Source: Mycobacteroides phage 8UZL. Taken from it: DNA of 47,806 bases. The notes below the pieces were generated by a model, which was not told where the DNA came from, ran no database searches, and saw only the letters and a program-made list of their open reading frames with translations. Position numbers and translations under genes: made by a program. Of the stretch, positions 1 through 47,806 are shown piece by piece. Location of the stretch: the sequence record OQ988004.1; one strand, written 5' to 3'. How positions within the stretch are numbered: the stretch's first letter is position 1; every line of letters starts with the position of its first letter.

Positions 1-621
1 GGATGGCTCGGGATGGGGTGCTCCCCCTAGGGGTGGGGTGCCCCGGCCAGCAAACTTCTCAGCAAACGACGGGTCCATCCATCGCGGCACGAGCGCGGCG
101 CCTGGAACAGGGCGGACGAAGGCATCGCAGTCACCACACTTCCTGTTCCCTGCCCCATCCAAGTAATGCACCATGTCATGTGGGCATCGCCGCATCCGCT
201 CCACCTTGTCCTGCACCTCTGCCTCCTCCACTACCTCGTCTCCCGTCGTCGTCGGAGTATCGCCTTGATGTTCCCGAGCACCACATCACTAGGCGTATGC
301 CTATGCGTGCCATCATCAACACATCGAATGATGTCACCGAGGGCGTCACGATCACGCTTGAGGCGTCGCAATAATGACCCCGTCACATACACACGATTGT
401 TACCTGTCATGGCACAACCACCTTGAATGTGATACCCCTTGTTCTGATGTGTGGTACGCATGCCCATAGGTGCACGCTATGTTCTACCCACCCATACACA
501 GGGGACCATGAGTGGATATATACCAGGCCTGCATAACGTGCCCGTATAGAGCGCCGTATATACGACACCCTATGTGGCTGGGTCATATCACGCGGATGCA
601 CATTGCGGTTTGTGTGGTATT

Positions 622-945
622 TCATTCCTTCTTCTCACGGGGGAAGATCAGGGAAAAGGTCACCTGCCCAGGCGCCATGTCACCACACACCGCCAGTGCA
701 TCACGAAGCTTCTGCACATCAACGTGATCCAGCTCCAGCGTGAGGCCTCCATCAACGACGATCTTGGCCCCGCCTCGCATACCACCCCCGTTCGGTGTGA
801 GCGTGAACGTCGAGCACGTGCCTTCGGCCATGAGAGCCCTTCCTTGGTGTGGTACGGAGCCGAGACCTAGCAGGTCCCAAAACTTGCTTCCTACGACAGG
901 AGGAGTGTTATACCACTCGCGCATGGGATCAGGGGGGCAATTCAC
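622..945 (-). CDS. hypothetical protein (107 aa)
   Basis: Minus-strand ORF at the end of the leftward early block. Protein-like composition but no recognisable motif. Confidence 0.3.
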   Translation of the reverse strand: MNCPPDPMREWYNTPPVVGSKFWDLLGLGSVPHQGRALMAEGTCSTFTLTPNGGGMRGGAKIVVDGGLTLELDHVDVQKLRDALAVCGDMAPGQVTFSLIFPREKKE

Positions 946-1358
946 TCGATGACCTTCCGCTGAGTGCCGACGATTGCCGCCTCTTTCGCCAACGAGGTCA
1001 AGCGGTAGTGGTTGTGATCCACCCGCTCGATCAGGCCGTATTCCTGGCCCTTGTACAGCGCATTGTGCGCAGTGGATGAAGAGACGTCCGGGTATTTCTC
1101 GAGCAGCAGCTCAGAGAGCAGATTCGTCGTCACCGTCTTGTTCCGGTGCTTCGACTTCTTCCACCAGTTGAGCACGAAGGCAACCTGCCATCCCGTCGTC
1201 TCTACGACTTGCTGCTCTTCGTCTTCCACTTCCTCGGCCGCCATCACAGGTCGAGGAATCACCCCAGTGTCCAACGCTGTCTTAAGACTGATCAGTTCCT
1301 CGAGGGTGTCGCAGTAAATGCCCTCATATGAATATGCCATCTTCCTTACCTTTCTCAT
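942..1358 (-). CDS. hypothetical protein, possible winged-helix DNA-binding fold
   Basis: 138-aa ORF. The true start is probably the internal Met (MAYSYEG, about 1340). The C-terminus resembles a wHTH. 4-nt overlap with neighbours typical of a phage operon. Confidence 0.45.
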   Translation of the reverse strand: MRKVRKMAYSYEGIYCDTLEELISLKTALDTGVIPRPVMAAEEVEDEEQQVVETTGWQVAFVLNWWKKSKHRNKTVTTNLLSELLLEKYPDVSSSTAHNALYKGQEYGLIERVDHNHYRLTSLAKEAAIVGTQRKVIE

Positions 1359-1654
1359 TCCCAGCGGTCCTTCCGACCGGGATGATTCTTTCTTCTGGCC
1401 TCTTCGGCCGCTTCCTTTCTCATCTTCGCACGTCGTGCCTTAGTCTCCTGTGTATGCCTCTCATGGCAGGGATGACAGAGGGCCCTGAGGTTGTCGTCAG
1501 CGTCTCCACCACCATCCACGCGATCAATGATGTGGTCGACAACCGTGGCACGTCCCAGGCAGCCCCAGGCGCCCATCTCACAGCGAGGATGAGTGCGTAG
1601 GTATCGCTTTTGGATCCGAGCCCACACCCAGCTGTTCGACTCGTTGGTGCGCAT
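1355..1654 (-). CDS. HNH endonuclease
   Basis: Motif VVDHIIDRVDGGGDADDNLRALCHPCHERH (HNH with Zn-binding Cys/His). Start ATG at 1654 overlaps the upstream stop as TGATG, verified in sequence. Confidence 0.75.
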   Translation of the reverse strand: MRTNESNSWVWARIQKRYLRTHPRCEMGAWGCLGRATVVDHIIDRVDGGGDADDNLRALCHPCHERHTQETKARRAKMRKEAAEEARRKNHPGRKDRWE

Positions 1655-2007
1655 CAGTCGAAAGTGATCGACGGCGGACCAGGTGACAGGTGCAGCGTGA
1701 GGTTGATCTTCTGGTAGCCACCTCGGTCGATGTGCTCCTTGCTGTGCCTGCCGCATGTGATCGGTGTGGGACGGATGACCTTCGTCTGACTGACGTACAT
1801 ACCAGTTGGGAAGAAGCCTGAGGACTCGTCATGCAAGTCCTTGTGGTAAAAGCGATAGACCTGACCCTTCTCCACCATTACCACCGACCTCTCATACCGC
1901 TCAGGTACTCGGGTGTAGTTGTAGGCGTGGATCAGGTCCTCAACTCTATGCTTTGCCACGTGCCAACTCCCGTGCCCAGGTGATGTGTGCATGGTCCTCG
2001 AGGTCAC
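1654..2007 (-). CDS. hypothetical protein (117 aa)
   Basis: Minus-strand ORF translationally coupled to the HNH gene. Confidence 0.45.
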   Translation of the reverse strand: MTSRTMHTSPGHGSWHVAKHRVEDLIHAYNYTRVPERYERSVVMVEKGQVYRFYHKDLHDESSGFFPTGMYVSQTKVIRPTPITCGRHSKEHIDRGGYQKINLTLHLSPGPPSITFD

Positions 2008-2191
2008 GACGCAGCTTCTGCTGTCCGCGCTTGGTGTTGCCCCAGAATGCCTTGAGGCCTCGCCAATTTTCGATGCGCCACGGCATGTTCAGACAGGCAT
2101 ACAGCATCTCACCGCGTGTGGGCATGAGCTCGAGAACGCTGAGCGTCATCTTGCCAATGCTCTGGTATGCGCGATCAATCGGTGACGGCAT
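1946..2191 (-). CDS. hypothetical protein (81 aa)
   Basis: Minus-strand ORF that bridges flanking genes with short overlaps. Confidence 0.3.
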   Translation of the reverse strand: MPSPIDRAYQSIGKMTLSVLELMPTRGEMLYACLNMPWRIENWRGLKAFWGNTKRGQQKLRRDLEDHAHITWARELARGKA

Positions 2192-2645
2192 CAGCGGGCT
2201 CCCACTTCTTCCCTGAGTGCGGATCGTGCAGCATCACTCCGTCGATCTTCAGCCACTCGTCCATCTCATGCAGCTCCATCGCACGGATACACTCCTGGAT
2301 CCAGTAGACCTGCTGCTTGAGTGGCCAATCGGCGATGCCATGCGGAATTGGGTGCATCATTTCCACACGGGCCATCTGCGTGTTGCCTGGGTGGTAGGAG
2401 TCGTGGACAGGTGCACTGACGATCTTCAGCGCTGGGTAACCCAGCATGTAGTTCTCCATCACTGTGAACCACCAGTCGATCTTGTACTGCACCCGATCAA
2501 CGATTGCCTGCACCGCTCGAGCTTCCGGCGTTGAATGCCGGTGCTCCAGGGTCTGGCCTCCGAATGGCTCGATGGTCGTGTCATCACCGGGGAGGGTAAT
2601 CTCGCCGATCAATCCCAATGGAACGAAGTCCTCAGCTGAGCTCAT
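2175..2645 (-). CDS. hypothetical protein (156 aa)
   Basis: Minus-strand ORF with protein-like composition. No motif recognised. Confidence 0.45.
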   Translation of the reverse strand: MSSAEDFVPLGLIGEITLPGDDTTIEPFGGQTLEHRHSTPEARAVQAIVDRVQYKIDWWFTVMENYMLGYPALKIVSAPVHDSYHPGNTQMARVEMMHPIPHGIADWPLKQQVYWIQECIRAMELHEMDEWLKIDGVMLHDPHSGKKWEPADAVTD

Positions 2646-2943
2646 CGGCCTGTGCCATTACCTCGTCGTAGTGCTCGGGGCACTCCGTCAGCGCGGCCAA
2701 GCCGATGGCTTCACCGGCATCCTCGGGGCCAATGTTGTACCTGATGACGAGGTCCATGCCGATGGTCAGAATGGTATCTCCTTCGTCCAGCATGTTACAG
2801 ATGAGCTCCGACTTGCTGAGGCCCGGCGAGGCGTCCGCGTGAGACGCGGCGGCGAGTCCCACACCGGCGAGCACCGCACCTGCGGCCATCACTCCGAGGG
2901 TACGGCGCACCTGGCGCTTGTGGTAGGTGGGGATACGGATCAT
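2632..2943 (-). CDS. secreted/membrane-anchored protein with an N-terminal signal or TM segment
   Basis: N-terminus MIRIPTYHKRQVRRTLGVMAAGAVLAGVGLAAASHADA has a basic n-region, a hydrophobic core and an AxA cleavage-like site. Short acidic mature domain. Confidence 0.5.
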   Translation of the reverse strand: MIRIPTYHKRQVRRTLGVMAAGAVLAGVGLAAASHADASPGLSKSELICNMLDEGDTILTIGMDLVIRYNIGPEDAGEAIGLAALTECPEHYDEVMAQADELS

Positions 2944-3137
2944 TTATTGGTCCTTTCGAGAGAGGGGTAGGGCACGGTGCCCGGGTTCACTTGGACTATA
3001 TACTGGGCTTCCCCCGACGGGATCTGACGGCCACAGTAACAGCACCGAGCGTTGGGTGTGACGTGGGGATGACCGACCTTGAGCTTCAGGCCATCCCAGC
3101 AGTGATTGCAGACTGGCTGCTTCCATGAGAACTTCAT
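2940..3137 (-). CDS. zinc-ribbon protein (65 aa)
   Basis: CNHC ... CCYCGRQ cysteine pairs. Confidence 0.45.
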   Translation of the reverse strand: MKFSWKQPVCNHCWDGLKLKVGHPHVTPNARCCYCGRQIPSGEAQYIVQVNPGTVPYPSLERTNK

Positions 3138-3322
3138 TGTGAATCCAGAAGATCCAGCAATCGAGCTCGGAAGACCTGGTAGTCGCCGATGATCTCGATC
3201 TTGTTGTTGACGGCCGTAGACACGAAGAACGAGTCCGTGCCGCTGACCACCGAAGTCACGGTGCAGAGATTGACGAGAACCGTTTCTCCGGCGCGAGTCT
3301 CACCCTCAAACCACATTTGCAT
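3134..3322 (-). CDS. hypothetical protein (62 aa)
   Basis: Small minus-strand ORF with a 4-nt overlap to neighbours. Confidence 0.4.
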   Translation of the reverse strand: MQMWFEGETRAGETVLVNLCTVTSVVSGTDSFFVSTAVNNKIEIIGDYQVFRARLLDLLDSQ

Positions 3323-3325
3323 TTC

Positions 3326-3634
3326 TTACTCCTCTTCTTCATCTGTGAGTAGGATCCTGGCTTTTGCCAGTTCCAGTTCATGCTTTGGGGATGATGGTGT
3401 CCGCATGATTGACAGCATCTTCACCATCCCCAAGATCTTGCCCTCGTTCTTCAGCCGCTCCTTCGCATCGGTGAGATTCCCACGTGCTAACAATTCCGCA
3501 TCCAGGGCATCTTGCATCTTCTCGATGAGCGTCTTTCCGCGTTTCCCTGGGAAGCTGTTGCTCTGCACCAGTTCCATGTGTCGCGCTAAGCGCCGCTGTC
3601 GCCTGCTCACCGCCATTGTCCAGCTCCTTTCCAC
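3326..3634 (-). CDS. hypothetical protein (102 aa; start uncertain)
   Basis: Protein-like ORF. It overlaps the 3-prime part of ORF 3378-4142 in another frame, so one of the two is mis-delimited or a frameshift exists. Confidence 0.3.
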   Translation of the reverse strand: MERSWTMAVSRRQRRLARHMELVQSNSFPGKRGKTLIEKMQDALDAELLARGNLTDAKERLKNEGKILGMVKMLSIMRTPSSPKHELELAKARILLTDEEEE

Positions 3635-4046
3635 ACCAGGAACAATAGAGCCATTGCCAGGAGACGTACTTCTCGCAGTACTTGCACTTCAGCTCAACTC
3701 CTTTTTCCATCTCCTTAGCAACTCTACGCGCAGCCCGCTTCTGACTCGGCGTCTCGAAGGTCCCGTGCTTCGCGTTCAGGTACACCTGCATGTCTCGACC
3801 GATCTCACGGAGACGGCGGTCGATCCAGGCCTTGAATCTGAGGGTGTTCTCATCCTTGAGTCCGCCCGCGTGCTCGTGGAAGCGCTTCTTCACCTGTGCC
3901 GCTACATGCTCGTCATACTTGGCGGCTTGAGAGCTGACGGCCATACCCGTGCGGACGATCTCGAGGTATGCGGTGATGAAGCGCTCGGGCATGAAACCCA
4001 AGGCCTCGAGTTCCTCGGCGATGTGAGAAGCATTCTTGCGCCTCAT
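3378..4046 (-). CDS. zinc-ribbon protein (start at internal Met MRRKNASH)
   Basis: CKYC ... CSWC zinc-ribbon motif. The Met start at 4046 gives an ATGA overlap with the upstream gene. The C-terminal 70 aa are low-complexity and overlap ORF 3326-3634, so the true end is doubtful. Confidence 0.4.
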   Translation of the reverse strand: MRRKNASHIAEELEALGFMPERFITAYLEIVRTGMAVSSQAAKYDEHVAAQVKKRFHEHAGGLKDENTLRFKAWIDRRLREIGRDMQVYLNAKHGTFETPSQKRAARRVAKEMEKGVELKCKYCEKYVSWQWLYCSWCGKELDNGGEQATAALSATHGTGAEQQLPRETRKDAHREDARCPGCGIVSTWESHRCEGAAEERGQDLGDGEDAVNHADTIIPKA

Positions 4047-4405
4047 CGGAAACGCTCCAATGCCTTGTGGTAGATGTAGTAGGAACCGTTCGAGAGTTCC
4101 CAGTCCGGGTGATCTCCCGGCACTACTCCTTGCACGTACCACACCAGGTCAAGCAGGGGGCCGACGAGCGGCGTCACGAACAGATAGCTGTGATCGAGGT
4201 GGCGCGGCAATCCCCCATACAGACGCAGCACCAAGGGGTGCATACGCCAAGTGATGACGGGCACGACGTTTCCAAGGGATCCGTAATGGGCCCTCAGATC
4301 GTCGATGAGCGCCTGAATCGCTCCCGACGACGGTTGATGTGCGGGCGGGAAGCCGAGGGGCGCATAGACGCCCTCACGGATCGGTCCTTGGATTACTGGG
4401 GCCAT
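4043..4405 (-). CDS. hypothetical protein (120 aa)
   Basis: Minus-strand ORF in an operon with 4-nt overlaps. Confidence 0.4.
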   Translation of the reverse strand: MAPVIQGPIREGVYAPLGFPPAHQPSSGAIQALIDDLRAHYGSLGNVVPVITWRMHPLVLRLYGGLPRHLDHSYLFVTPLVGPLLDLVWYVQGVVPGDHPDWELSNGSYYIYHKALERFR

Positions 4406-4522
4406 ACCGGCACCGCCTTGTGAGGCTTGCTGGTCCAGTGCTCACGCTTCTTGTGAGCCCAGCCATTGTTGGACTTGGTCGACTGGGTGAGCTTCTTGCC
4501 ACACCCAGCGCAGTTCGGCTGC

Positions 4523-4771
4523 TTAGGCATCCTGGGTCTCCTTCTTGCGGGCCGCATCACGCAGCATCTGCTTGGCATCGCGCTTGGCGGCGAACAGCGC
4601 TTGCTGAGCGATGCGACGAGCGAGACGCTGAGGGTCGTGCTCCTTCTGCCATTCCTGGAGCTTGCGGCGACGGATCAGCTCGACCTGCTTGAAGAACTGG
4701 CGATCACCGTTGCGCTTGGCGAGTCGCTTCCTCCGTCGGGAGTCGCGAGTGGAGTTCCGATTCTGGCTCAT
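4523..4771 (-). CDS. small highly basic protein (82 aa)
   Basis: Arg/Lys-rich helical protein, possibly nucleic-acid binding. Confidence 0.45.
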   Translation of the reverse strand: MSQNRNSTRDSRRRKRLAKRNGDRQFFKQVELIRRRKLQEWQKEHDPQRLARRIAQQALFAAKRDAKQMLRDAARKKETQDA

Positions 4772-5625
4772 TTCTGGGCAAGTCCTTTCAGCGTCCAGGT
4801 CTTTTGGTATTCAGTAGCAGTATACGAGACCGGGCTTGTTGGCATTTCTCGAGCGATGAAAGTCAGCCAGTGGTAGCGCTCGAGGATTCTCTGGCCGGTG
4901 ACGATCTCGAAGTAAGTCGGGGGTTCCTTTGGATCTGTCGATTGCACCACCATCTCTGTGTAGTCGAACGAAGTCACTGGGGGAATCCAGTAGGACTGAT
5001 CCCGCAGCAGCCATTGCCCATCAGCGAGTTGCCGGTAATCCACACCCCGCTCACGCAGCTCACGCATCGAGAAAGCCTCTCGGTGCTCCACCGTCATCGT
5101 CTGGCGAGTATGGATGGGGAACCGGCTGCGAGGGTACCGAGATTCCGCGAACTCGTGAGTCACGTCAACGGCGATGTCCCATTCATCCCAGCTCGGTGGC
5201 TGGAAGCGGTAGGTCTTGTAGTGCTTCTGCCGGTAGCGTCCCTCATTGCCGTAGTACTGGAGGCGATGGCGCTTGTCCCAGATCTGATCGGGAGGGTTAG
5301 GTCCTTGGACATCGGACCCCGGGCAGAAGACGTGAGAGTCGTCGGTGGCATAGGAGTAATCCTCCGGCATCACCCAGTGAGCATAATCTATCTCACCGGG
5401 CTCTCCCTCTCGATAACCGTCCAGGATCTCTTGCTGGTGCTCGAGGTACTCCTCGCGCATCTCCACCATTCGGCGGGTGATCGGAAGCCCATGCCACATC
5501 TGGTTGCAATGGGGACACGGATCCGGATTCGCTTGATGGGCCTCGTCCCTCTCGCCTCGCTCGAGGTCCTCGGAGATGAGCGAGTCGATGTCAGACATGA
5601 GAGAGTCGTAGTCGTCAGTGGGCAT
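4768..5625 (-). CDS. hypothetical protein (285 aa)
   Basis: Long minus-strand ORF with a CPHC pair. Its start lies directly downstream of the iteron-rich intergenic region. Confidence 0.55.
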   Translation of the reverse strand: MPTDDYDSLMSDIDSLISEDLERGERDEAHQANPDPCPHCNQMWHGLPITRRMVEMREEYLEHQQEILDGYREGEPGEIDYAHWVMPEDYSYATDDSHVFCPGSDVQGPNPPDQIWDKRHRLQYYGNEGRYRQKHYKTYRFQPPSWDEWDIAVDVTHEFAESRYPRSRFPIHTRQTMTVEHREAFSMRELRERGVDYRQLADGQWLLRDQSYWIPPVTSFDYTEMVVQSTDPKEPPTYFEIVTGQRILERYHWLTFIAREMPTSPVSYTATEYQKTWTLKGLAQK

Positions 5626-5659
5626 AGCAGTACTTTACCTTGCCTGTCTCTTCTCGTTC

Positions 5660-6000
5660 GACCCGGACACCCGGACCGCGGACATCCCCCGACAGGGGGA
5701 ATGGATGTCCGTGTCCGAGGTGTACGTGGTCGGGGTATCCAATTTCTCTTTTCCCTGTTGCGCGTTCTCGGTGCTGCTTGTGCCCGGTCATTTAGGGCGG
5801 ACATCGAGGAAGTGTGTATATACACACCTCGAACGCACAACGTGTCCGCCGCCGCCCTTTTCCCTCATTTCCGGACTCGTCGGACAGTGCGTTCGGTGAC
5901 CCCACAAGCAGCGGCTATTTCCGCCGTTGTCGCGTCCGGACATGACCGGACATATTGCTGTACCCGGACAGCCGCCGGTGCCTTATGTCCGGCGAGATCG
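5660..6000. repeat. iteron-like cluster of about 13 CGGACA / TGTCCGG(AC) copies
   Basis: Repeated CCGGACA, GTCCGGAC (a palindrome) and TGTCCG motifs. They lie in the 5626-5864 intergenic region and continue into the last ~45 codons of the primase gene. Confidence 0.6.
5812..5827. repeat. perfect 16-bp palindrome GTGTGTATATACACAC with AT-rich centre
   Basis: Read directly from the sequence. It sits inside the iteron cluster. Confidence 0.7.
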
Positions 6001-7790
6001 TCCTCTGTCAGCTCGTCGTCATCGGTGTACTTTCGGCCCTTGCTGGGTGTGGATTTGACGTATTCCTCGGGGTCCCAGCGATCAGGCAGGCCTGCCACAC
6101 GGAACGTGAGTTCGTTCGTCCCCGTGTACTTCGTCTCATGCGTGAAGTCGAGCTCTATCGTCGGGCCGTTCTCACGCTTCTCAGTCACGTAGATGCCGAA
6201 GTCAGCCCAGGCGTGAATCTGTCCCGATCCAGCCATGTTCTGAGCAGCACGCCCATTCGCCTGTGCCTTCGTGTTGTGATGCACGAACACCAGCGCACAG
6301 TTCTCCTGACGGGCAATCTCCTTCATCGGATTCAGCAGGTCACCTGTCACCGTCGAGGCGCTGTCCAAATCCACACCCGGCGCAGCGCGAGTGAGGGTGT
6401 CAACGATGACCAGCGACAGCTGTGACTCCTGGATGACATCAGACAGCCATGTCTGCCAGCCCTCATCGCTCAAATCAACCGCCAACATTGTTTCGACGTA
6501 CAACGCCCCCGGGTACTGCTCGAGCTCACGCTGTGGGCGATCTAGGGAGTACTTCGGATGCTTCGTGCTGGCGATCACGTTATGACGTGACCTGACCATG
6601 GTCGTCGGATCCTCTCGCTGCACGTAGAGGACGTTAATGGGCTGCTCGCACTCGTAGCTCAGGTACTCCTTGCCGAGCGCCGATGAGATGGCCAGATCCA
6701 TCGCCAGCCACGTCTTCATCGACTTCGGAATCCCCGAGATGAAGCCGCACCCTCCTTTTGGGATAAACTGGTCATAAAGCCATTCCGGCTCTGGCGCATT
6801 AAGATATTCCTCATTCCGCCAGAAAGGGACTAGCTTGTGTTTAACCTCAGTATCCTGATCAAGAGCAGCAGTCTCTTTGGGCTTCTTGAGAGCGAGCGCT
6901 TTGCCGCACTCCAGCGTCAATCGCTTGAGCTCGTCGGCGCGTCCCTCGAACTTGTTCCATGGAGTTGGTCGAATGATCGCTACCATCTCCAGCAGCGTGC
7001 AGCCAGCGTCCGCGAGTTCCCGCTCGACTTGCCACGCGATCTCCGACCTGTCCAGACCCGAGTCATCTTTGAGTCGCATGTACTGCCTGATAACGCCTCG
7101 AAGCTTGCGCTTGACGCGGGCGTAGGACTCATACGGGTCGATACTCTCAAGAAGCTGCTCAGTTACGAGGTCTCCCCCGACCACGTCCGCCTGGGGAATT
7201 TCTGGCAGACGGTCGATCTCGTCCCACGCGAGGCGGGAGCCTCCGCGCCACACGAGGCGTCCCCGAATACCTTCTACATATCCGGGCTTGTTGTTAGCAC
7301 TCCCCGGTACTCGTAGTAGCTGTGTGGTATCCCATCCACTGGGATCTGCACCGAGCGCAATGGACAGGCGATGATTCTCTCCGCCTCGTTCGGTTGTCTC
7401 AGGCCGCGACGAGTGCATGAACCAGATTGCAGCGAAGCGACCGGGCGAGGTTTCCCAGGCGAGAGTAGGCTTAAGTTCTTCCTTGATGTCATCAGGGTTG
7501 GCTTCATCGAGGTCGGCCCAAAGCCTATTCCCGATTGCCGCCCACTCTGAGATGCGCTTGGGCCCGGTGAACACCATTGGGGAGAAGTAGAGATCGTCCT
7601 CCCAGTGCTTCTCGAGGTGGTCACGCATCTTGTCGTAGTCCGCCGGAATGCGGAAAGCCGGACCCTCTCGCCAGTGGTGTTTCCGCTCGTCTGTCCGGGC
7701 CCATTTCTTTTCTATGTAGGGCAAGAAGACATACCCGTCAGCCTTGCGCCAGATGGCCCTGAGAATGCGAAGTTGTTTATCGACGTCCAT
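5865..7790 (-). CDS. bifunctional DNA primase-polymerase / helicase (AEP prim-pol N-domain plus D5/AAA_25-type NTPase, C-terminal HTH)
   Basis: N-terminal LWADLDEAN (DxD) and GRFAAIWFMH (hxH-like) prim-pol motifs. Walker A GIPKSMKT and a Walker B/RecA-like core (VIVDTL ... FVHH). C-terminal HTH TTAEIAAACGVTERTVRR. Confidence 0.85.
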   Translation of the reverse strand: MDVDKQLRILRAIWRKADGYVFLPYIEKKWARTDERKHHWREGPAFRIPADYDKMRDHLEKHWEDDLYFSPMVFTGPKRISEWAAIGNRLWADLDEANPDDIKEELKPTLAWETSPGRFAAIWFMHSSRPETTERGGENHRLSIALGADPSGWDTTQLLRVPGSANNKPGYVEGIRGRLVWRGGSRLAWDEIDRLPEIPQADVVGGDLVTEQLLESIDPYESYARVKRKLRGVIRQYMRLKDDSGLDRSEIAWQVERELADAGCTLLEMVAIIRPTPWNKFEGRADELKRLTLECGKALALKKPKETAALDQDTEVKHKLVPFWRNEEYLNAPEPEWLYDQFIPKGGCGFISGIPKSMKTWLAMDLAISSALGKEYLSYECEQPINVLYVQREDPTTMVRSRHNVIASTKHPKYSLDRPQRELEQYPGALYVETMLAVDLSDEGWQTWLSDVIQESQLSLVIVDTLTRAAPGVDLDSASTVTGDLLNPMKEIARQENCALVFVHHNTKAQANGRAAQNMAGSGQIHAWADFGIYVTEKRENGPTIELDFTHETKYTGTNELTFRVAGLPDRWDPEEYVKSTPSKGRKYTDDDELTEDDLAGHKAPAAVRVQQYVRSCPDATTAEIAAACGVTERTVRRVRK

Positions 7791-7811
7791 AAATCTTGGA
7801 GACCCCTTCGG

Positions 7812-7826
7812 TATGATTACTGCATG
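7812..7826 (+). promoter_or_regulatory. putative leaderless promoter: -10 TATGAT, 6-nt spacer, ATG
   Basis: A TANNNT hexamer lies 6 nt upstream of the ATG of gene 7824. This matches the architecture of the minus-strand promoters at 20388 and 46966. No convincing -35. Confidence 0.3.
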
Positions 7827-8282
7827 ACAACCGCACTAACATTACCCGCATTGCCCAGCTTGTTGCACAACGAGGGTTATGCTGAATACTTCAAACGGAA
7901 CATCCGTTGCTTCCGCTCGACCGATCCCAACAAGTGGCAGATCGCTGCTGTCACGCACGAAGGGAAATGGCGAAACGGCTTCCGTCCGGACTTCCGGACA
8001 TCGTGGGAAGCCACCAAGAAGTTGTGGCACTCGGGTGAGTATGCGGACATCGCCATCATTGCCCGCAATCGCGTCTTCAGTACTCCCCGTGATCTCGCCG
8101 AGGAACTCTGTGCACCGGGCCAGGAATGGTGCGGTCGTTGTCGCCGCCCGACGGAGTTCCGTCTATACCTGAAGACTCATCATGCCCTCAAGCACGCCCC
8201 CGTGATCGTTCCCGGGTTGATGCGTTGTTACTATTGCGGGATCAGCCGGGAGGCTGCCCTCAATACTTACGGGAAGGGATGA
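7824..8282 (+). CDS. Cys-rich hypothetical protein (start MTTALT)
   Basis: First gene of the rightward block. The internal Met is chosen because upstream codons overlap the primase gene on the other strand. CGRC and CYYC pairs. Confidence 0.5.
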   Translation: MTTALTLPALPSLLHNEGYAEYFKRNIRCFRSTDPNKWQIAAVTHEGKWRNGFRPDFRTSWEATKKLWHSGEYADIAIIARNRVFSTPRDLAEELCAPGQEWCGRCRRPTEFRLYLKTHHALKHAPVIVPGLMRCYYCGISREAALNTYGKG

Positions 8283-17727: not shown

Positions 17728-18361
17728 GGCAAAAGCCGAGATCATCGACTTCTCCAACGTCAAGGAGCGCGGGAACTACCAGCCCAAGCACGTGGCGGCC
17801 GGCGATTACCGGGGGAAGATCACCAAGGTGGTGGACGATCCGGCCAAGGACGGCACGAAGATGTGGACGTTCACCATCGAGTCCCCGGAGATTCCTCGTG
17901 CAACCTACCCGTACTACTGCAAGCTCGCCGAGAACCAGTTCTTCAAGTTGAAGTCCTTGTTCGAGGCTGCCGGCACGTCGGTGGGCAAGCGCAAGGTGAA
18001 GGTCGACCCCAACCGTCTGATCGGCAAGGAGATCGGCTTCGCGCTCGAAGACGACGAGTACGAGGGTCGGATGAAGTCCGTCATCGTTGAGGTGTTCCCG
18101 GCCAGCGAGGTCGGCGATGCGCCGGAGGACGACGAGGAAGAGGACGAGGACCTCGAGCCCGACGCGGACGACGAGGAAGAGGAAGAAGCCGAGGAGGAGC
18201 CGGAGGAAGACGCCGAGGAGGAAGAGGAAGAAGAGCCCGAGCCCCCGAAGCGTCGGAAGGCGCCGGCGAAGAAGGCTCCTACCAAGCGTGCTGCCAAGAA
18301 GGCGGCTGTCGAGGACGAGGAAGAAGAGAACCTCGAAGACCTCGACATTGACGAGCTGTAA
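17714..18361 (+). CDS. putative ssDNA-binding protein with a long acidic tail
   Basis: GTG start. ~130-aa globular N-domain, then a poly-Asp/Glu tract, a KAPAKKAPTKRAAKK stretch, and a terminal EDLDIDEL. Confidence 0.4.
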   Translation: MATSKAKAEIIDFSNVKERGNYQPKHVAAGDYRGKITKVVDDPAKDGTKMWTFTIESPEIPRATYPYYCKLAENQFFKLKSLFEAAGTSVGKRKVKVDPNRLIGKEIGFALEDDEYEGRMKSVIVEVFPASEVGDAPEDDEEEDEDLEPDADDEEEEEAEEEPEEDAEEEEEEEPEPPKRRKAPAKKAPTKRAAKKAAVEDEEEENLEDLDIDEL

Positions 18362-18511
18362 GGAGTAGTCACACGATGAATGGGAACCAGTCGAGGTACT
18401 TCTCCAACGCGGAGGGCTTCGGCTATCGGCTGGATTCCGGGGAGGTGGGAGCTTCCGGGCTCCCCACTCTTCGGGCTGCAATGGATCACTTCGAGAAGGG
18501 ATTGTTCGATC

Positions 18512-47269: not shown

Positions 47270-47592
47270 CGGGTCACCTGATCCTCGGGCAGCGCGTCCT
47301 GTGCGACGGCCACGAGCACACCAATCTCTTCGTCGGTGTCGTTGTGATGCCACACCACCCGGTAGTAGTGATCGCCGGTGACGGCGCCCGGGTTGAGTTC
47401 GTCGGCGGGTACGAGGGAAAAGTCCTTCATCGAGAGCCCAAGTGGGGAGGTAAGGAAGAGCTTGATGCAGCGGGCCTCGCCCGGGAAGGTGTAGGGGTCA
47501 GGATCAGAGTCTTCGGCTTGGCTAGCAAAGTAGAGCTCGAAGAGCGTGTTGCCAGCGGGTACGTTGTCGGGGGTCCATCCGTTCGTCGTCAT
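47266..47592 (-). CDS. hypothetical protein (start MTTNGWTPD)
   Basis: Starts ATGACGACGAAC, the same opening as three other leftward genes. Confidence 0.4.
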   Translation of the reverse strand: MTTNGWTPDNVPAGNTLFELYFASQAEDSDPDPYTFPGEARCIKLFLTSPLGLSMKDFSLVPADELNPGAVTGDHYYRVVWHHNDTDEEIGVLVAVAQDALPEDQVTR

Positions 47593-47693
47593 GCCATCAG
47601 TATATCGGACCTCGCCCAAGCGCCGCAAGGGTGGGCGCCGTCAGCAAAGAATCTGGCTAGCCCAGCAAACAAACCCCAGCGCCGCAGATCAAG

Positions 47694-47806
47694 CCAGGTG
47701 CGGCACCGGGGCCTGTCATCGCCCCAGGTCAGAGAGCAAACCCCCAGGTCAAAGCTCTGACGAGACCGTAGCCAGGTTTAGCGCGTAGCGGCTTTGGCGC
47801 TAAACC
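47694..47806. repeat. CCAGGT(C) direct repeats (x4) plus a terminal 10-bp inverted repeat GGTTTAGCGC / GCGCTAAACC
   Basis: Read directly. CCCCAGGTCA.AG repeats at ~47722 and ~47742 with a 20-bp period. The inverted repeat lies at 47775-47784 and 47797-47806. Confidence 0.55.

Follow-up and report, generated by a model that had tools for sequence, protein, structure and literature searches.

The region between gp54 and gp56 of Mycobacteroides phage 8UZL is probably an iteron-type replication origin, or at least the place where the gp54 protein binds and is loaded: a cluster of short repeats, an alternating purine–pyrimidine palindrome and a GC hairpin lie together around the 3' end of gp54, and we base this reading on their sequence and on comparison with related phages. 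The window analysed (sequence record OQ988004.1; 47,806 nt) is a complete Muddy-like (cluster AB) mycobacteriophage genome. The repeats, the palindrome and the hairpin are highly non-random and conserved in position; the hairpin co-varies, and the repeats co-vary with the class of the helix–turn–helix (HTH) domain of gp54. An origin had already been proposed here in a sequence-only reading, and comparative evidence now supports each core element of that proposal (selection at the DNA level, the tracking of the repeats with the HTH and the position of the palindrome). The features are as follows.

5865–7790, minus strand: gp54, primase-helicase with a C-terminal DNA-binding domain, the presumed initiator (Pfam, PDB match, identity to Muddy)
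5868–5975, minus strand: codons of the three-helix HTH, gp54 aa 606–641 (AlphaFold, translation, HTH neighbours)
5872–5991: repeats within the gp54 coding sequence, exact at 5881, 5937, 5947 and 5965 (CGGACA, plus strand) and at 5986 (TGTCCG, plus strand), degenerate at 5872 and 5933
5843–5848: repeat TGTCCG (plus strand) on the gene side of the palindrome, inverted relative to the copy at 5798 (motif enumeration; same pattern in relatives)
5804–5832: imperfect 29-bp palindrome TCGAGGaaGTGTGTATATACACACCTCGA with a perfect 16-bp core (5812–5827) of alternating purines and pyrimidines
5798–5803: repeat CGGACA (plus strand) on the far side of the palindrome (motif enumeration)
5742–5760, minus strand (gene-sense): purine-rich, relatively A+T-rich stretch caacagggaaaagagaaat (similar stretches in relatives)
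5700–5741, minus strand (gene-sense): C-rich, G-poor tract directly 5' of the hairpin (14-locus composition, alignment)
5686–5699: GC hairpin with a 5-bp stem and a 4-nt loop, sense strand CCCCC-TGTC-GGGGG (conserved, compensatory changes)
5664–5717: repeats around the hairpin, direct at 5664, 5672 (degenerate) and 5679 on one side, inverted at 5706 and 5712 on the other
5623–5637, minus strand: gp56 start (ATG 5625–5623) and possible -10 element TAAAGT (5637–5632) (read from the sequence)

The protein encoded by gp54 is 100% identical to Muddy gp54. Its residues 91–171 match the Pfam family RepB_primase (PF16793; E=4.7e-11) and residues 332–510 match AAA_25 (PF13481; E=1.6e-26), and the sole match in a PDB sequence search is the RepA helicase of RSF1010 (1g8y; E=1.8e-5). 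Judging from these matches, gp54 has primase and helicase domains with homology to RepB' and RepA of RSF1010, and it is a fusion of a RepB'-like primase, a RepA-like hexameric helicase and a DNA-binding domain. The three functions belong to separate proteins in RSF1010, and we propose that the HTH of gp54 takes the role that RepC has there. This C-terminal HTH, pointed out earlier, is real: the Pfam match to HTH_23 has a sub-threshold score (E=2.4e-4), AlphaFold predicts three helices (model residues 35–45, 51–58 and 62–69, i.e. gp54 aa 606–616, 622–629 and 633–640; pLDDT 82–90), and the Foldseek neighbours of the model are all DNA-binding HTH domains. The linker of ~30 aa ahead of it is modelled with low confidence (pLDDT 52–58) and is probably flexible. 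Similarity of the HTH to Z-alpha (Z-DNA-binding) domains (profile E ~0.004; Foldseek ranks 10, 27 and 30, E ~1) was judged to be generic HTH likeness, as the gp54 domain has no wing. A search for plasmid-borne gp54 homologues (a possible autonomous replicon) gave distant partial matches only, and a scan of viral contigs with the single gp54 protein returned Muddy itself only.

The hexamer CGGACA/TGTCCG has 11 exact copies in the 328 bp between 5664 and 5991, and 27 in the remaining 47.5 kb. On the plus strand CGGACA is found at 5664, 5679, 5798, 5881, 5937, 5947 and 5965, and TGTCCG at 5706, 5712, 5843 and 5986; three more copies have one mismatch and an intact CGGAC core (CGGACC at 5672, CGGACT at 5872 and, on the minus strand, CGGACG at 5933). 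The earlier figure of about 13 copies was thus a fair one, and the span given with it also agrees with our enumeration of both strands: six exact copies are in the 239-bp gap (5626–5864) and five in the last 45 codons of gp54. Three TGTCCGG copies had been placed within 40 nt of coding sequence, and CCGGACA at 5936, 5946 and 5964 indeed gives three coding-strand copies inside 35 nt; the palindromic form GTCCGGAC, however, said to occur several times, is found once in the region (5934). The direct copies beside the hairpin (5664, 5672 and 5679) are spaced by 8 and 7 nt, and the inverted repeat I1 around the hairpin has its arms at 5664–5687 and 5703–5726. HTH sites that share one helix face are seldom spaced by 6–8 bp, and the repeat spacing here counts against the origin reading.

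Chance is excluded as the source of the cluster. Genome-wide the hexamer occurs 38 times, as expected from a Markov model (36.8), and its clustering is therefore no artefact of composition or codons; 300 simulated genomes had at most four copies per 350-bp window (versus the 11 observed). In an unbiased scan of the genome with all 6-mers, CGGACA/TGTCCG forms the top cluster (Poisson 1.5e-14, as compared with ~3e-7 for the next independent locus). For the last 45 codons of gp54, back-translation of the peptide with the codon usage of the phage gives an expectation of 0.56 copies, whereas five are observed (P=5e-5); the other 596 codons contain one copy only. The codon-usage artefact, a doubt raised together with the origin proposal, is rejected by both the Markov count and the back-translation. 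The in-gene copies use two reading frames and both orientations, and the recognition helix ERTVRRVRK is itself built from repeat copies (acTGTCCGa encodes TVR and aGTCCGG encodes VR). Selection on the repeats acts at the level of the DNA, as had been suggested for the coding copies, with synonymous codons used to form copies within the HTH-coding sequence.

We compared 17 loci: Muddy, NoShow and 15 metagenomic relatives (55–89% protein identity). Muddy, FF47 and Maco2/6/7 were too similar to one another for footprinting, because the whole gap is nearly invariant among them. The 17 loci have a common layout, in the order: repeats in the HTH codons, stop codon, alternating purine–pyrimidine palindrome flanked by inverted repeats, C-rich tract, GC hairpin (with compensatory substitutions) and tandem repeats. 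Relatives also show the pattern of inverted repeat, palindrome and repeat, and two to four tandem class-specific repeats lie past their hairpins.

The enriched motif differs among the HTH classes of these loci: TGTCCG, CCGGGT/GGCCGG, GGCCGG or GGCGAG. TGTCCG has 11 copies in the region and five in the flanks of Muddy; GGCCGG has 7–8 copies in the region and 1–7 outside in the GIG[LI]RT[VI]RR class; and GGCGAG has 5–6 in the region and 2–10 outside in the [IV]GER[ST]V[ST]RARK class. No repeat is enriched across classes, except that the GV[AS]ERTVR[KG] class has GGCCGG besides CCGGGT. Two comparisons separate the HTH from the rest of the protein: over the first 560 aa NoShow has 89% identity to locus L011, but the two HTHs match at 35% and the repeats are not the same, whereas NoShow and locus L014 have 63% identity over those 560 aa, with HTHs that are 90% identical and the same repeats. 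In these alignments the repeat sequence follows the HTH class independently of the rest of the protein, and the HTH and its repeats have travelled as a module apart from the primase-helicase body in at least three lineages; this co-inheritance could partly reflect physical linkage, since the HTH and the repeats are contiguous. The distant relatives from Gordonia have a different C-terminal domain and show no clear repeat enrichment, with GC-rich inverted repeats instead; the lack of such repeats in them weighs against the origin reading.

The perfect palindrome GTGTGTATATACACAC is exactly where it had been reported (5812–5827), and it is both the longest perfect palindrome and the longest purine–pyrimidine alternation in the genome. 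In 14 of 14 close loci an alternating palindrome lies 2–52 nt past the stop codon; its position is kept while its sequence varies. Alternating runs of at least 11 nt occur within 140 nt of the stop codon in 15 of 17 close and 16 of 32 distant relatives (versus 2–3.6% of control windows), and the tract is kept even in relatives that are 28–55% identical and have a different C-terminal domain. It had been called a plausible unwinding element. This description holds in the sense of a deformable or cruciform-capable sequence, and only in that sense, because the region is not AT-rich: only a TATATA core is found at the centre, the best 30-bp window has 57% A+T, and a scan for AT-richness and duplex-stability minima did not place the region among the AT-rich windows of the genome. 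The lack of an AT-rich unwinding element weighs against the origin reading. The palindrome (5804–5832) is listed as a candidate site of melting, cruciform formation or helicase entry.

The stem-loop CCCCCGACAGGGGG was also correctly located (5686–5699), and it turns out to be a conserved component, found 127–171 nt past the stop codon in 14 loci. In the 13 loci whose hairpins could be aligned, all 65 cells (100%) are paired, and none of 500 shuffles was as good. Three of the five stem pairs have changed on both sides (CCGCC/GGCGG, CCACC/GGTGG, CCCTC/GAGGG, GCCCC/GGGGC and CCTCC/GGAGG). All the replacements are Watson–Crick, with no G-U intermediates among the aligned loci, a pattern no less consistent with a DNA element than with an RNA one; the hairpin may be a structural element or a single-strand initiation signal. 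Pooled over 14 loci, the 32-nt stretch that precedes the hairpin contains 193 C and 75 G, and A/G-rich stretches are found ~35–60 nt upstream of it in most relatives. By eye, a GTG priming triplet stands beside the hairpin in about half of the aligned loci, which is suggestive only. A search of Rfam with 5400–6200 gave no match at E<=1 on either strand.

Could the element instead control transcription between gp54 and the downstream operon (gp56–gp71)? Transcription of gp54 would then be terminated or attenuated, intrinsically or by Rho at a rut-like site, at the palindrome, at the hairpin and its C-rich tract, or at both, and the repeats would be operators for the gp54 HTH or another phage HTH protein (e.g. 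Muddy gp68) at the promoter of the next gene. The element does lie at a gene boundary, and its 32-nt pre-hairpin tract is C-rich and G-poor as rut sites are. TAAAGT, 6 nt ahead of the gp56 ATG, has the TANNNT form of a -10 element and is a possible one, which would imply a leaderless transcript (we list it because the neighbouring repeats could also serve as an operator); locus L015 has TACAGT-tctgct-ATG in the same place, abutting a repeat, and several relatives have promoter-plus-RBS-like motifs ('tgaTACGAT/TATGAT ... gaaaggaa') 30–50 nt past the tandem repeats. With such -10-like elements just downstream of the repeats in some relatives, a role in transcription is possible, and the region could have this role besides that of an origin, as iteron initiators are in many cases transcriptional regulators too. 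As the explanation of the element, however, we consider it unlikely. A consensus scan found neither promoter nor terminator in the gap, and no T-run, which an intrinsic terminator calls for, follows the palindrome or the hairpin in this genome or in any relative. The 11–14 sites spread over 330 bp, five of them in codons more than 100 bp upstream, are excessive for an operator, and the distance from the repeats to the putative -10 element varies (~29–47 nt by eye in relatives, abutting in L015). The purine–pyrimidine tract is kept in distant relatives regardless of the downstream gene, and the strictly Watson–Crick changes in the hairpin fit DNA at least equally.

It is far less likely that the pattern is a by-product of coding or annotation, with the gap encoding a small protein (Muddy gp55, 37 aa) and the gp54 copies resulting from a Val-Arg-rich peptide and GC-rich codons; we give this very little credence. 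Muddy gp55 is annotated in the gap with a TTG start at the end of the purine-rich stretch (5742–5760), the Maco phages and FF47 have other small ORFs annotated there, a purine-rich stretch followed by a start codon precedes the hairpin in nine of 14 relatives, and the gp54 HTH does contain four V-R dipeptides. But the annotations of Muddy, FF47 and Maco are mutually inconsistent, the ORFs over the hairpin use all three frames among relatives and encode unrelated peptides (some loci have no ORF), and gp55 is rejected as a gene because neither frames nor peptides are conserved. Six exact copies are outside any credible gene, and the in-gene excess given above, spread over two frames and both orientations, also speaks against a peptide effect. 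Some other kind of cis-acting site, for example one for packaging or recognition by terminase, one with a partition-like role or a hotspot of recombination at a mosaic boundary, is also quite improbable. Short repeats and palindromes are typical of pac/cosB and parS as well, and the block of HTH and repeats clearly acts as a recombination module. The element, however, maps ~5.8 kb from the genome end, with replication genes as neighbours and the terminase end far away; among the nearby genes examined, none is of the ParA/ParB type; and a recombination boundary fails to explain the codon-level selection, the hairpin covariation and the class-specific repeats.

The cumulative GC skew, proposed earlier as a check, has no inflection at 5.8 kb and has local extremes at ~16 and 22 kb. 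Skew in this phage genome tracks the direction of transcription and gene orientation, and the result, being uninformative for this reason, neither supports nor refutes an origin; as an origin feature, GC skew carries little weight for phages.

If the region is an origin, we propose that it works as follows. The HTHs of several gp54 subunits would bind the 6–7-bp repeats (TGTCCG(G) in Muddy), which form three groups: one inside the codons of the HTH, one flanking the palindrome and one flanking the hairpin, with copies of opposite orientation within each of the two flanking groups. Binding would gather the helicase and orient it over the alternating palindrome, proposed here to be the most deformable and cruciform-prone sequence of the genome, and negative supercoiling together with the assembling helicase would melt the DNA at that point. 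The C-rich leader and the GC hairpin, now single-stranded, may then be recognised by the primase domain in the way that RepB' recognises the ssiA/ssiB hairpins, so that DNA synthesis would be primed at the hairpin and replication would start in this region.

The organisation of the region resembles the origins of SaPIs, of the plasmid pRN1 and of IncQ plasmids, and the region is a member of none of these groups. SaPIs and pRN1 are precedents for an origin that directly follows the 3' end of a primase-helicase gene and is recognised by the C-terminal DNA-binding domain of the encoded protein. SaPI/PICI origins have 6–12 penta- or hexanucleotide iterons directly downstream of rep, oriented oppositely on the two sides of a central AT region (PMC9371898; citing Ubeda et al. 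2007, 2012); the C-terminal DNA-binding domain of the helicase reads the iterons, specificity varies among related elements, and in SaPI5 primase and helicase are fused (PMC9371898). Here as well at least six short iterons lie just past the gp54 ORF (11 exact and three near copies, six exact ones in the 239 bp after the stop codon), with opposite orientations around the palindrome (5798 versus 5843) and the hairpin (5664–5684 versus 5706–5717), and gp54 has a C-terminal domain whose class co-varies with the repeat motif; that gp54 reads the repeats is predicted. However, the Rep of SaPIs belongs to the AAA+ (MCM/SF3-like) helicases and ends in a winged-helix domain, whereas gp54 is of the RecA-fold RepA/DnaB type with a wingless three-helix HTH; as its helicase domain is PF13481 with the match to RSF1010 RepA, the system is an analogue of the SaPI type and not a member. 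The SaPI centre is AT-rich where the Muddy-type centre is an alternating purine–pyrimidine palindrome, and Muddy-type repeats reach into the HTH codons and are accompanied by an extra, conserved GC hairpin.

At the oriV of RSF1010, initiator-bound iterons are followed by helicase unwinding and by recognition of a hairpin single-strand initiation signal by the RepB' primase, which needs such signals (PMC8567376). The primase and helicase of gp54 are homologous to RepB' and RepA, and the origin logic is the one that we propose for the gp54 region. The differences are considerable: RSF1010 uses three separate proteins and 20-bp direct iterons, whereas the Muddy type uses one fused protein, has no separate RepC homologue and has 6–7-bp repeats in both directions; and the two 40-nt ssi sites of RSF1010, on opposite strands in a large inverted repeat, have 9-bp stems, whereas Muddy has one conserved 14-nt GC hairpin with a 5-bp stem, plus a palindrome that would give a hairpin on each strand. 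The sequence that we take to be ssiA (5'-CCTTTC-CCCCTACCCGAAGGGTGGGGG-CGCGTG...) is found at 100% identity in IncQ-type plasmids. It resembles the hairpin unit of the Muddy family in shape and composition only: a pyrimidine-rich leader, a C-run in the 5' arm and a G-run in the 3' arm.

In pRN1, a stem-loop 54 bp past orf904 is required for replication, and the same arrangement has been noted in some bacteriophages (PMC4234260). ORF904 (prim-pol, SF3 helicase, winged helix) is, like gp54, a multifunctional primase, helicase and DNA-binding protein with a structured element tens of bp past its own stop codon; the structure is conserved and the sequence variable, and the element is essential in pRN1. 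But pRN1 is an archaeal plasmid with a ~100-nt stem-loop, no reported iterons and a helicase of another superfamily. Repeats within the coding sequence of the initiator, as proposed for gp54, are also a feature of phage lambda: the binding repeats of O lie inside gene O itself, where 19-bp iterons in the linker-coding region are followed by an AT-rich region, and O is not a helicase. The alpha protein of phage P4 has a build like that of gp54, being a single chain that carries primase, helicase and, at its C-terminus, an origin-binding domain and that recognises short repeats (ori/crr); its sites are not adjacent to the 3' end of the alpha gene, and its helicase belongs to SF3.

More tentatively, the actinobacteriophage family with RepB'-primase/RepA-helicase fusions may, though we hold it to be doubtful, share an unrecognised origin design made of a universal core in the form of a short alternating purine–pyrimidine tract, an ssi-like hairpin and, in the Muddy lineage, a specificity cassette. 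The core may be a cruciform- or Z-DNA-prone sequence with many weakly stacked pyrimidine–purine steps, not AT-rich, just past the initiator stop codon; the ssi-like GC hairpin may be read by the primase domain; and the cassette of the Muddy lineage may be exchangeable, with the same nucleotides encoding the HTH and its own binding sites. In such a design, protein and target share nucleotides and therefore would be inherited and swapped as one unit.

Muddy is one of few phages in therapeutic use against Mycobacterium abscessus and is being engineered and synthesised; a full-text literature search found no description of an origin or a transcriptome for Muddy/FF47. A defined origin and initiator would show which cis element a recoded or minimised genome has to keep, would lead one to expect incompatibility or specificity of replication among related phages in cocktails, and, as origin plus gp54, could yield a compact one-protein replicon for mycobacterial vectors. 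The matched cassettes of HTH and repeats are a natural series for studying how initiator specificity evolves, and the data point to a deeply conserved alternating purine–pyrimidine element whose possible part in opening the origin is amenable to experiment.

The window is the complete genome of a Muddy-like mycobacteriophage (cluster AB, Mapvirus), in reverse-complement orientation to the Muddy record; between 4700 and 8000, identity is 98.8% with Maco7 and 97% with both Muddy and FF47. Gene orientation is - for 1-7790, + for ~7.86-18.4 kb and - again from ~21.5 kb. The features discussed are:

4768-5625, - strand: gp56, the next gene downstream of gp54
5626-5864: gap between gp54 and gp56
5628-5742, - strand: Muddy gp55 (37 aa, TTG start), annotated across the C-rich tract, hairpin and tandem repeats
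5804-5832: imperfect palindrome of 29 bp, enclosing GTGTGTATATACACAC
5865-7790, - strand: gp54
7791-7861: intergenic region from which gp54 (-) and the + strand operon diverge

The gp54 protein is 100% identical to Muddy gp54 and appears in databases as 'RecA-like DNA recombinase', 'RepA' or 'DNA primase/helicase'. Pfam assigns it a primase domain of the RepB' type (PF16793, E=4.7e-11) and a P-loop domain of the RepA/DnaB type (PF13481, E=1.6e-26), and its sole match in a sequence search of solved structures is the RSF1010 RepA helicase (1g8y, E=1.8e-5). The Pfam HTH_23 match to the C-terminus is below its threshold. AlphaFold, run on the C-terminal 70 residues together with 12 homologues, models three helices (pLDDT 82-90) preceded by a low-confidence linker of roughly 30 residues. 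The structural neighbours of this domain are all DNA-binding HTH domains (Lrp/AsnC, FapR, SETMAR/Mos1, MarR and others), with unspecific matches (E of at least 0.4 for every neighbour), as expected for a domain of only 36 residues. Profile matches to Z-alpha domains were weak and were taken to be generic. The three domains and the RSF1010 RepA match indicate a putative primase-helicase/initiator, not the 'RecA-like DNA recombinase' of many records.

The hexamer CGGACA (TGTCCG on the other strand) occurs 38 times in the window against a first-order Markov expectation of 36.8 +/- 5.9, and therefore is not generally favoured. Eleven of these copies fall within 5664-5991 (six in the gap, five in the 45 C-terminal codons of gp54), and another three, each with a single mismatch, retain the CGGAC core. 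Simulated genomes never had more than 4 copies per 350 bp, and when all 6-mers are scanned without bias, the cluster comes out on top (Poisson 1.5e-14), followed by CCGGAC and ATGTCC, related words at the same locus. The sequence-only reading, which took the repeats and palindrome for a putative replication origin, thus passes the genome-wide background count decisively. Its one inaccuracy of observation is that GTCCGGAC, said to occur several times, occurs once. There is no CGGACA in the divergent region 7791-7861, so the repeats are not positioned for classical autoregulation of the gp54 promoter; a TATGAT there (7814-7819) is a likely -10 for rightward transcription.

Two other repetitive places were seen. 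The second most clustered 6-mer set (GAGGAA, AGGAAG, GGAAGA; 7 copies in 350 bp) lies at 17890-18480, where AT and GC skew are both strongly positive, and probably reflects repetitive coding sequence for an acidic or Glu-rich segment. Near the right end of the window (the left end of the Muddy genome by coordinate mapping), 47500-47760 holds local short repeats (GGCTAGC/CAGCAAA-type words at ~47519-47530, 47643-47672 and 47735-47741, and CCCCAGGTCA twice at ~47723-47752) that might be terminase (cos) recognition repeats.

The last 45 residues of gp54 are DDLAGHKAPAAVRVQQYVRSCPDATTAEIAAACGVTERTVRRVRK. Over 20,000 back-translations that followed the codon usage of the phage, this peptide gave a mean of 0.56 hexamer copies versus 5 observed (P=5e-5 for 5 or more), which bears out the earlier suggestion that the coding copies are under DNA-level selection; the remaining 596 codons contain one copy. 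The coding copies lie in two reading frames (GTC-CGG, Val-Arg; TGT-CCG-GAC, Cys-Pro-Asp) and both orientations, and the recognition-helix codons (ERTVRRVRK) contain two, one exact and one degenerate. In Maco6 (OM793623.1, locus L021), a 151-bp tandem duplication (locus 1166-1316, window 5865-6015) spans the gp54 3' end, taking in the stop codon and the HTH codons. With it the coding-region repeat set is roughly doubled and the gap measures 390 instead of 239 bp; the duplication may be a naturally occurring variant of the origin or result from misassembly.

Many full-length homologues of gp54 (55-85% identity) turned up in a protein search. We compared the DNA around 12 of them, NoShow and four loci from a metagenome scan; what follows the gene in each locus is either a gap or small ORFs, which are not the same from one locus to the next.

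Successive parts common to all compared loci, on the gene-sense strand
1. Short repeats in about the final 40 codons
2. Stop codon
3. Usually a single inverted copy of the repeat
4. Alternating purine-pyrimidine palindrome, 2-52 nt past the stop
5. One or two repeats
6. Purine-rich, A+T-richer stretch
7. C-rich, G-poor tract of roughly 30 nt (193 C versus 75 G over 14 loci)
8. GC hairpin with a 5-bp stem, 127-171 nt past the stop
9. Tandem repeats (two to four) immediately 3' of the hairpin
10. Next gene

The repeat sequence varies with the class of the HTH.

Motif counts in the 420-bp region around the stop and in roughly 5.7-7.6 kb of flanking sequence, by HTH class
Muddy class (GVTERTVRR): TGTCCG; region 11, flanks 5
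GV[AS]ERTVR[KG] class: CCGGGT and GGCCGG; region 1-7 and 4-6, flanks 1-10 and 3-10
G[IV]G[LI]RT[VI]RR class: GGCCGG(T); region 7-8, flanks 1-7
[IV]GER[ST]V[ST]RARK class: (T)GGCGAG; region 5-6, flanks 2-10

In each class the motifs of the others have counts near zero, except that GGCCGG is common to the GV[AS]ERTVR[KG] and G[IV]G[LI]RT[VI]RR classes. The Muddy tandem GTCCGGGT-GTCCGGGT has a CCGGGT core, as do the repeats of the class with the HTH closest to that of Muddy. Three further loci (L024-L026) repeat the pattern, and L027 has a different motif, ATCTAGA. The association is independent of the phylogeny of the remaining protein:

Protein identity and repeats in pairs of loci
NoShow and L011: first 560 aa 89%, last 40 aa 35%; repeats different
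Window and L015: first 560 aa 87%, last 40 aa 48%; repeats different
NoShow and L014: first 560 aa 63%, last 40 aa 90%; repeats same

Because the association ignores the phylogeny of the first 560 aa, HTH and repeats are exchanged together as a cassette. Such joint exchange would be expected if the HTH reads the repeats, since swapped sites would no longer function if the protein reading them were encoded elsewhere, with the caveat that HTH and repeats are physically contiguous.

The palindrome and stem-loop described from the sequence are both present. GTGTGTATATACACAC (5812-5827) is the genome's longest perfect palindrome and longest purine-pyrimidine alternation, and its sequence differs between loci (e.g. 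GTGTGTATATACACAC, GGGGGTGTATACACACCC, CCGTATGTATACACATACGG, ATTGTATGTATATACATACAAT, (AT)n(CG)n and TACGTACGCGCGCGTATG). Within 140 nt of the stop, 11 or more alternating bases in a row are found in 15 of 17 close relatives versus 2.0% of control windows from the same loci (Mann-Whitney 8e-13), and in 16 of 32 distant relatives (28-55% identity) versus 3.6% of controls (Mann-Whitney 6e-8). The distant relatives have unrelated winged-helix-like C-termini, and their tract is often (CG)n-like, 3-25 nt past the stop. By this comparison, the alternating tract is the most deeply conserved part of the element. What is kept is alternation, not sequence, and this points to a physical property of the DNA rather than a protein recognition sequence, perhaps cruciform or Z-DNA potential, or dense weakly stacked pyrimidine-purine steps. 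Across distant loci L029-L066, alternating tracts lie 3-125 nt past the primase-helicase stop (e.g. CGCGCGCACGCG, TACGCGCGTGCGCGCG and TATATACGTGTATACGCAT), even where no short repeats are evident.

The window's hairpin is CCCCCGACAGGGGG (5686-5699). In 13 aligned loci all 65 of 65 stem positions pair, three of the five stem pairs have changed on both sides (CCGCC/GGCGG, CCACC/GGTGG, CCCTC/GAGGG, GCCCC/GGGGC, CCTCC/GGAGG), and one-sided changes are absent. None of 500 shuffles reached the observed pairing, which was lost when partner columns were slid. ORFs across the hairpin use all three frames in relatives and encode unrelated peptides; the conservation is therefore structural, not protein-coding. 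Other small ORFs are annotated at the equivalent of 5628-5742 in FF47 and the Maco phages, and the gp55 gene call is probably spurious. The alignment contains no G-U intermediates, an absence that does not tell RNA from DNA and is compatible with a structure forming in DNA. The RSF1010 ssiA 40-mer has a 100% identity match in IncQ-type plasmids; it is like the Muddy-family hairpin unit in composition and shape (pyrimidine-rich leader, C-run arm, G-run arm), but the Muddy-family stem is much shorter.

In RSF1010, RepC binds iterons and RepA unwinds the DNA; priming is by RepB', at two single-strand initiation signals that each contain a hairpin, where it contacts the six nucleotides 5' of the hairpin and starts at T32, just 3' of the hairpin (PMC8567376; PMC13037366). 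In SaPIs the C-terminal winged helix of Rep reads 6-12 penta- or hexanucleotide iterons, which flank a central AT region and are oppositely oriented on its two sides (PMC9371898), and pRN1 requires for replication a conserved stem-loop 54 bp past orf904 (PMC4234260). As in SaPIs and pRN1, the element lies directly 3' of a gene for a primase-helicase with a C-terminal DNA-binding domain. Given these precedents and the homology of gp54 to both RepB' and RepA, we propose that gp54 HTHs would bind the repeats, that the helicase would assemble over the palindrome, where the DNA would open, and that the exposed hairpin unit would be used by the primase domain for priming. The repeat region is not AT-rich. 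The GC-skew test suggested for the origin gave no inflection at 5.8 kb (local extremes at ~16 and 22 kb); AT and GC skew change at the transcription-direction switches (~7.8 and 19-21 kb), so for this phage skew is a poor guide to replication.

The serious rival, which may coexist with origin function, is that the element is a transcription control region. A -10-like TAAAGT lies 6 nt upstream of the gp56 start (TACAGT at the same position in L015), several relatives have -10-like and RBS motifs past the tandem repeats, and the C-rich tract is similar to a rut site. However, no T-runs follow the hairpin or palindrome, a consensus promoter/terminator scan gave no match, the sites are too many and too widely spread (some inside codons), their spacing to the putative promoters is not constant, and the purine/pyrimidine tract is conserved among relatives with different downstream genes. 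A coding or codon artefact is rejected on the ORF-frame and peptide comparison over the hairpin together with the back-translation, and a packaging or partition site finds no support. In seven loci (L010, L014, L016-L019 and L027), 'tgaTACGAT' or 'TATGAT' recurs ~30-350 nt past the tandem repeats, with 'acgaacgaaaggaa' and a start codon ~10-25 nt further on; this looks like a shared promoter (-10 TANNNT with TG), leader and RBS for genes downstream of the element.

It is almost certain that the repeats, palindrome and hairpin form a selected cis-acting DNA element, and fairly likely that this element is a replication origin or gp54 loading site. A full-text literature search found no description of a Muddy or FF47 origin, nor of the element. 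An iteron origin adjoining its initiator gene is a kind of element already known; distinctive here are the single RepB'/RepA/HTH fusion protein that would serve the candidate origin, the repeats written into the HTH codons, the alternating purine-pyrimidine palindrome in place of an AT-rich unwinding element, and the ssi-like hairpin with covariation.
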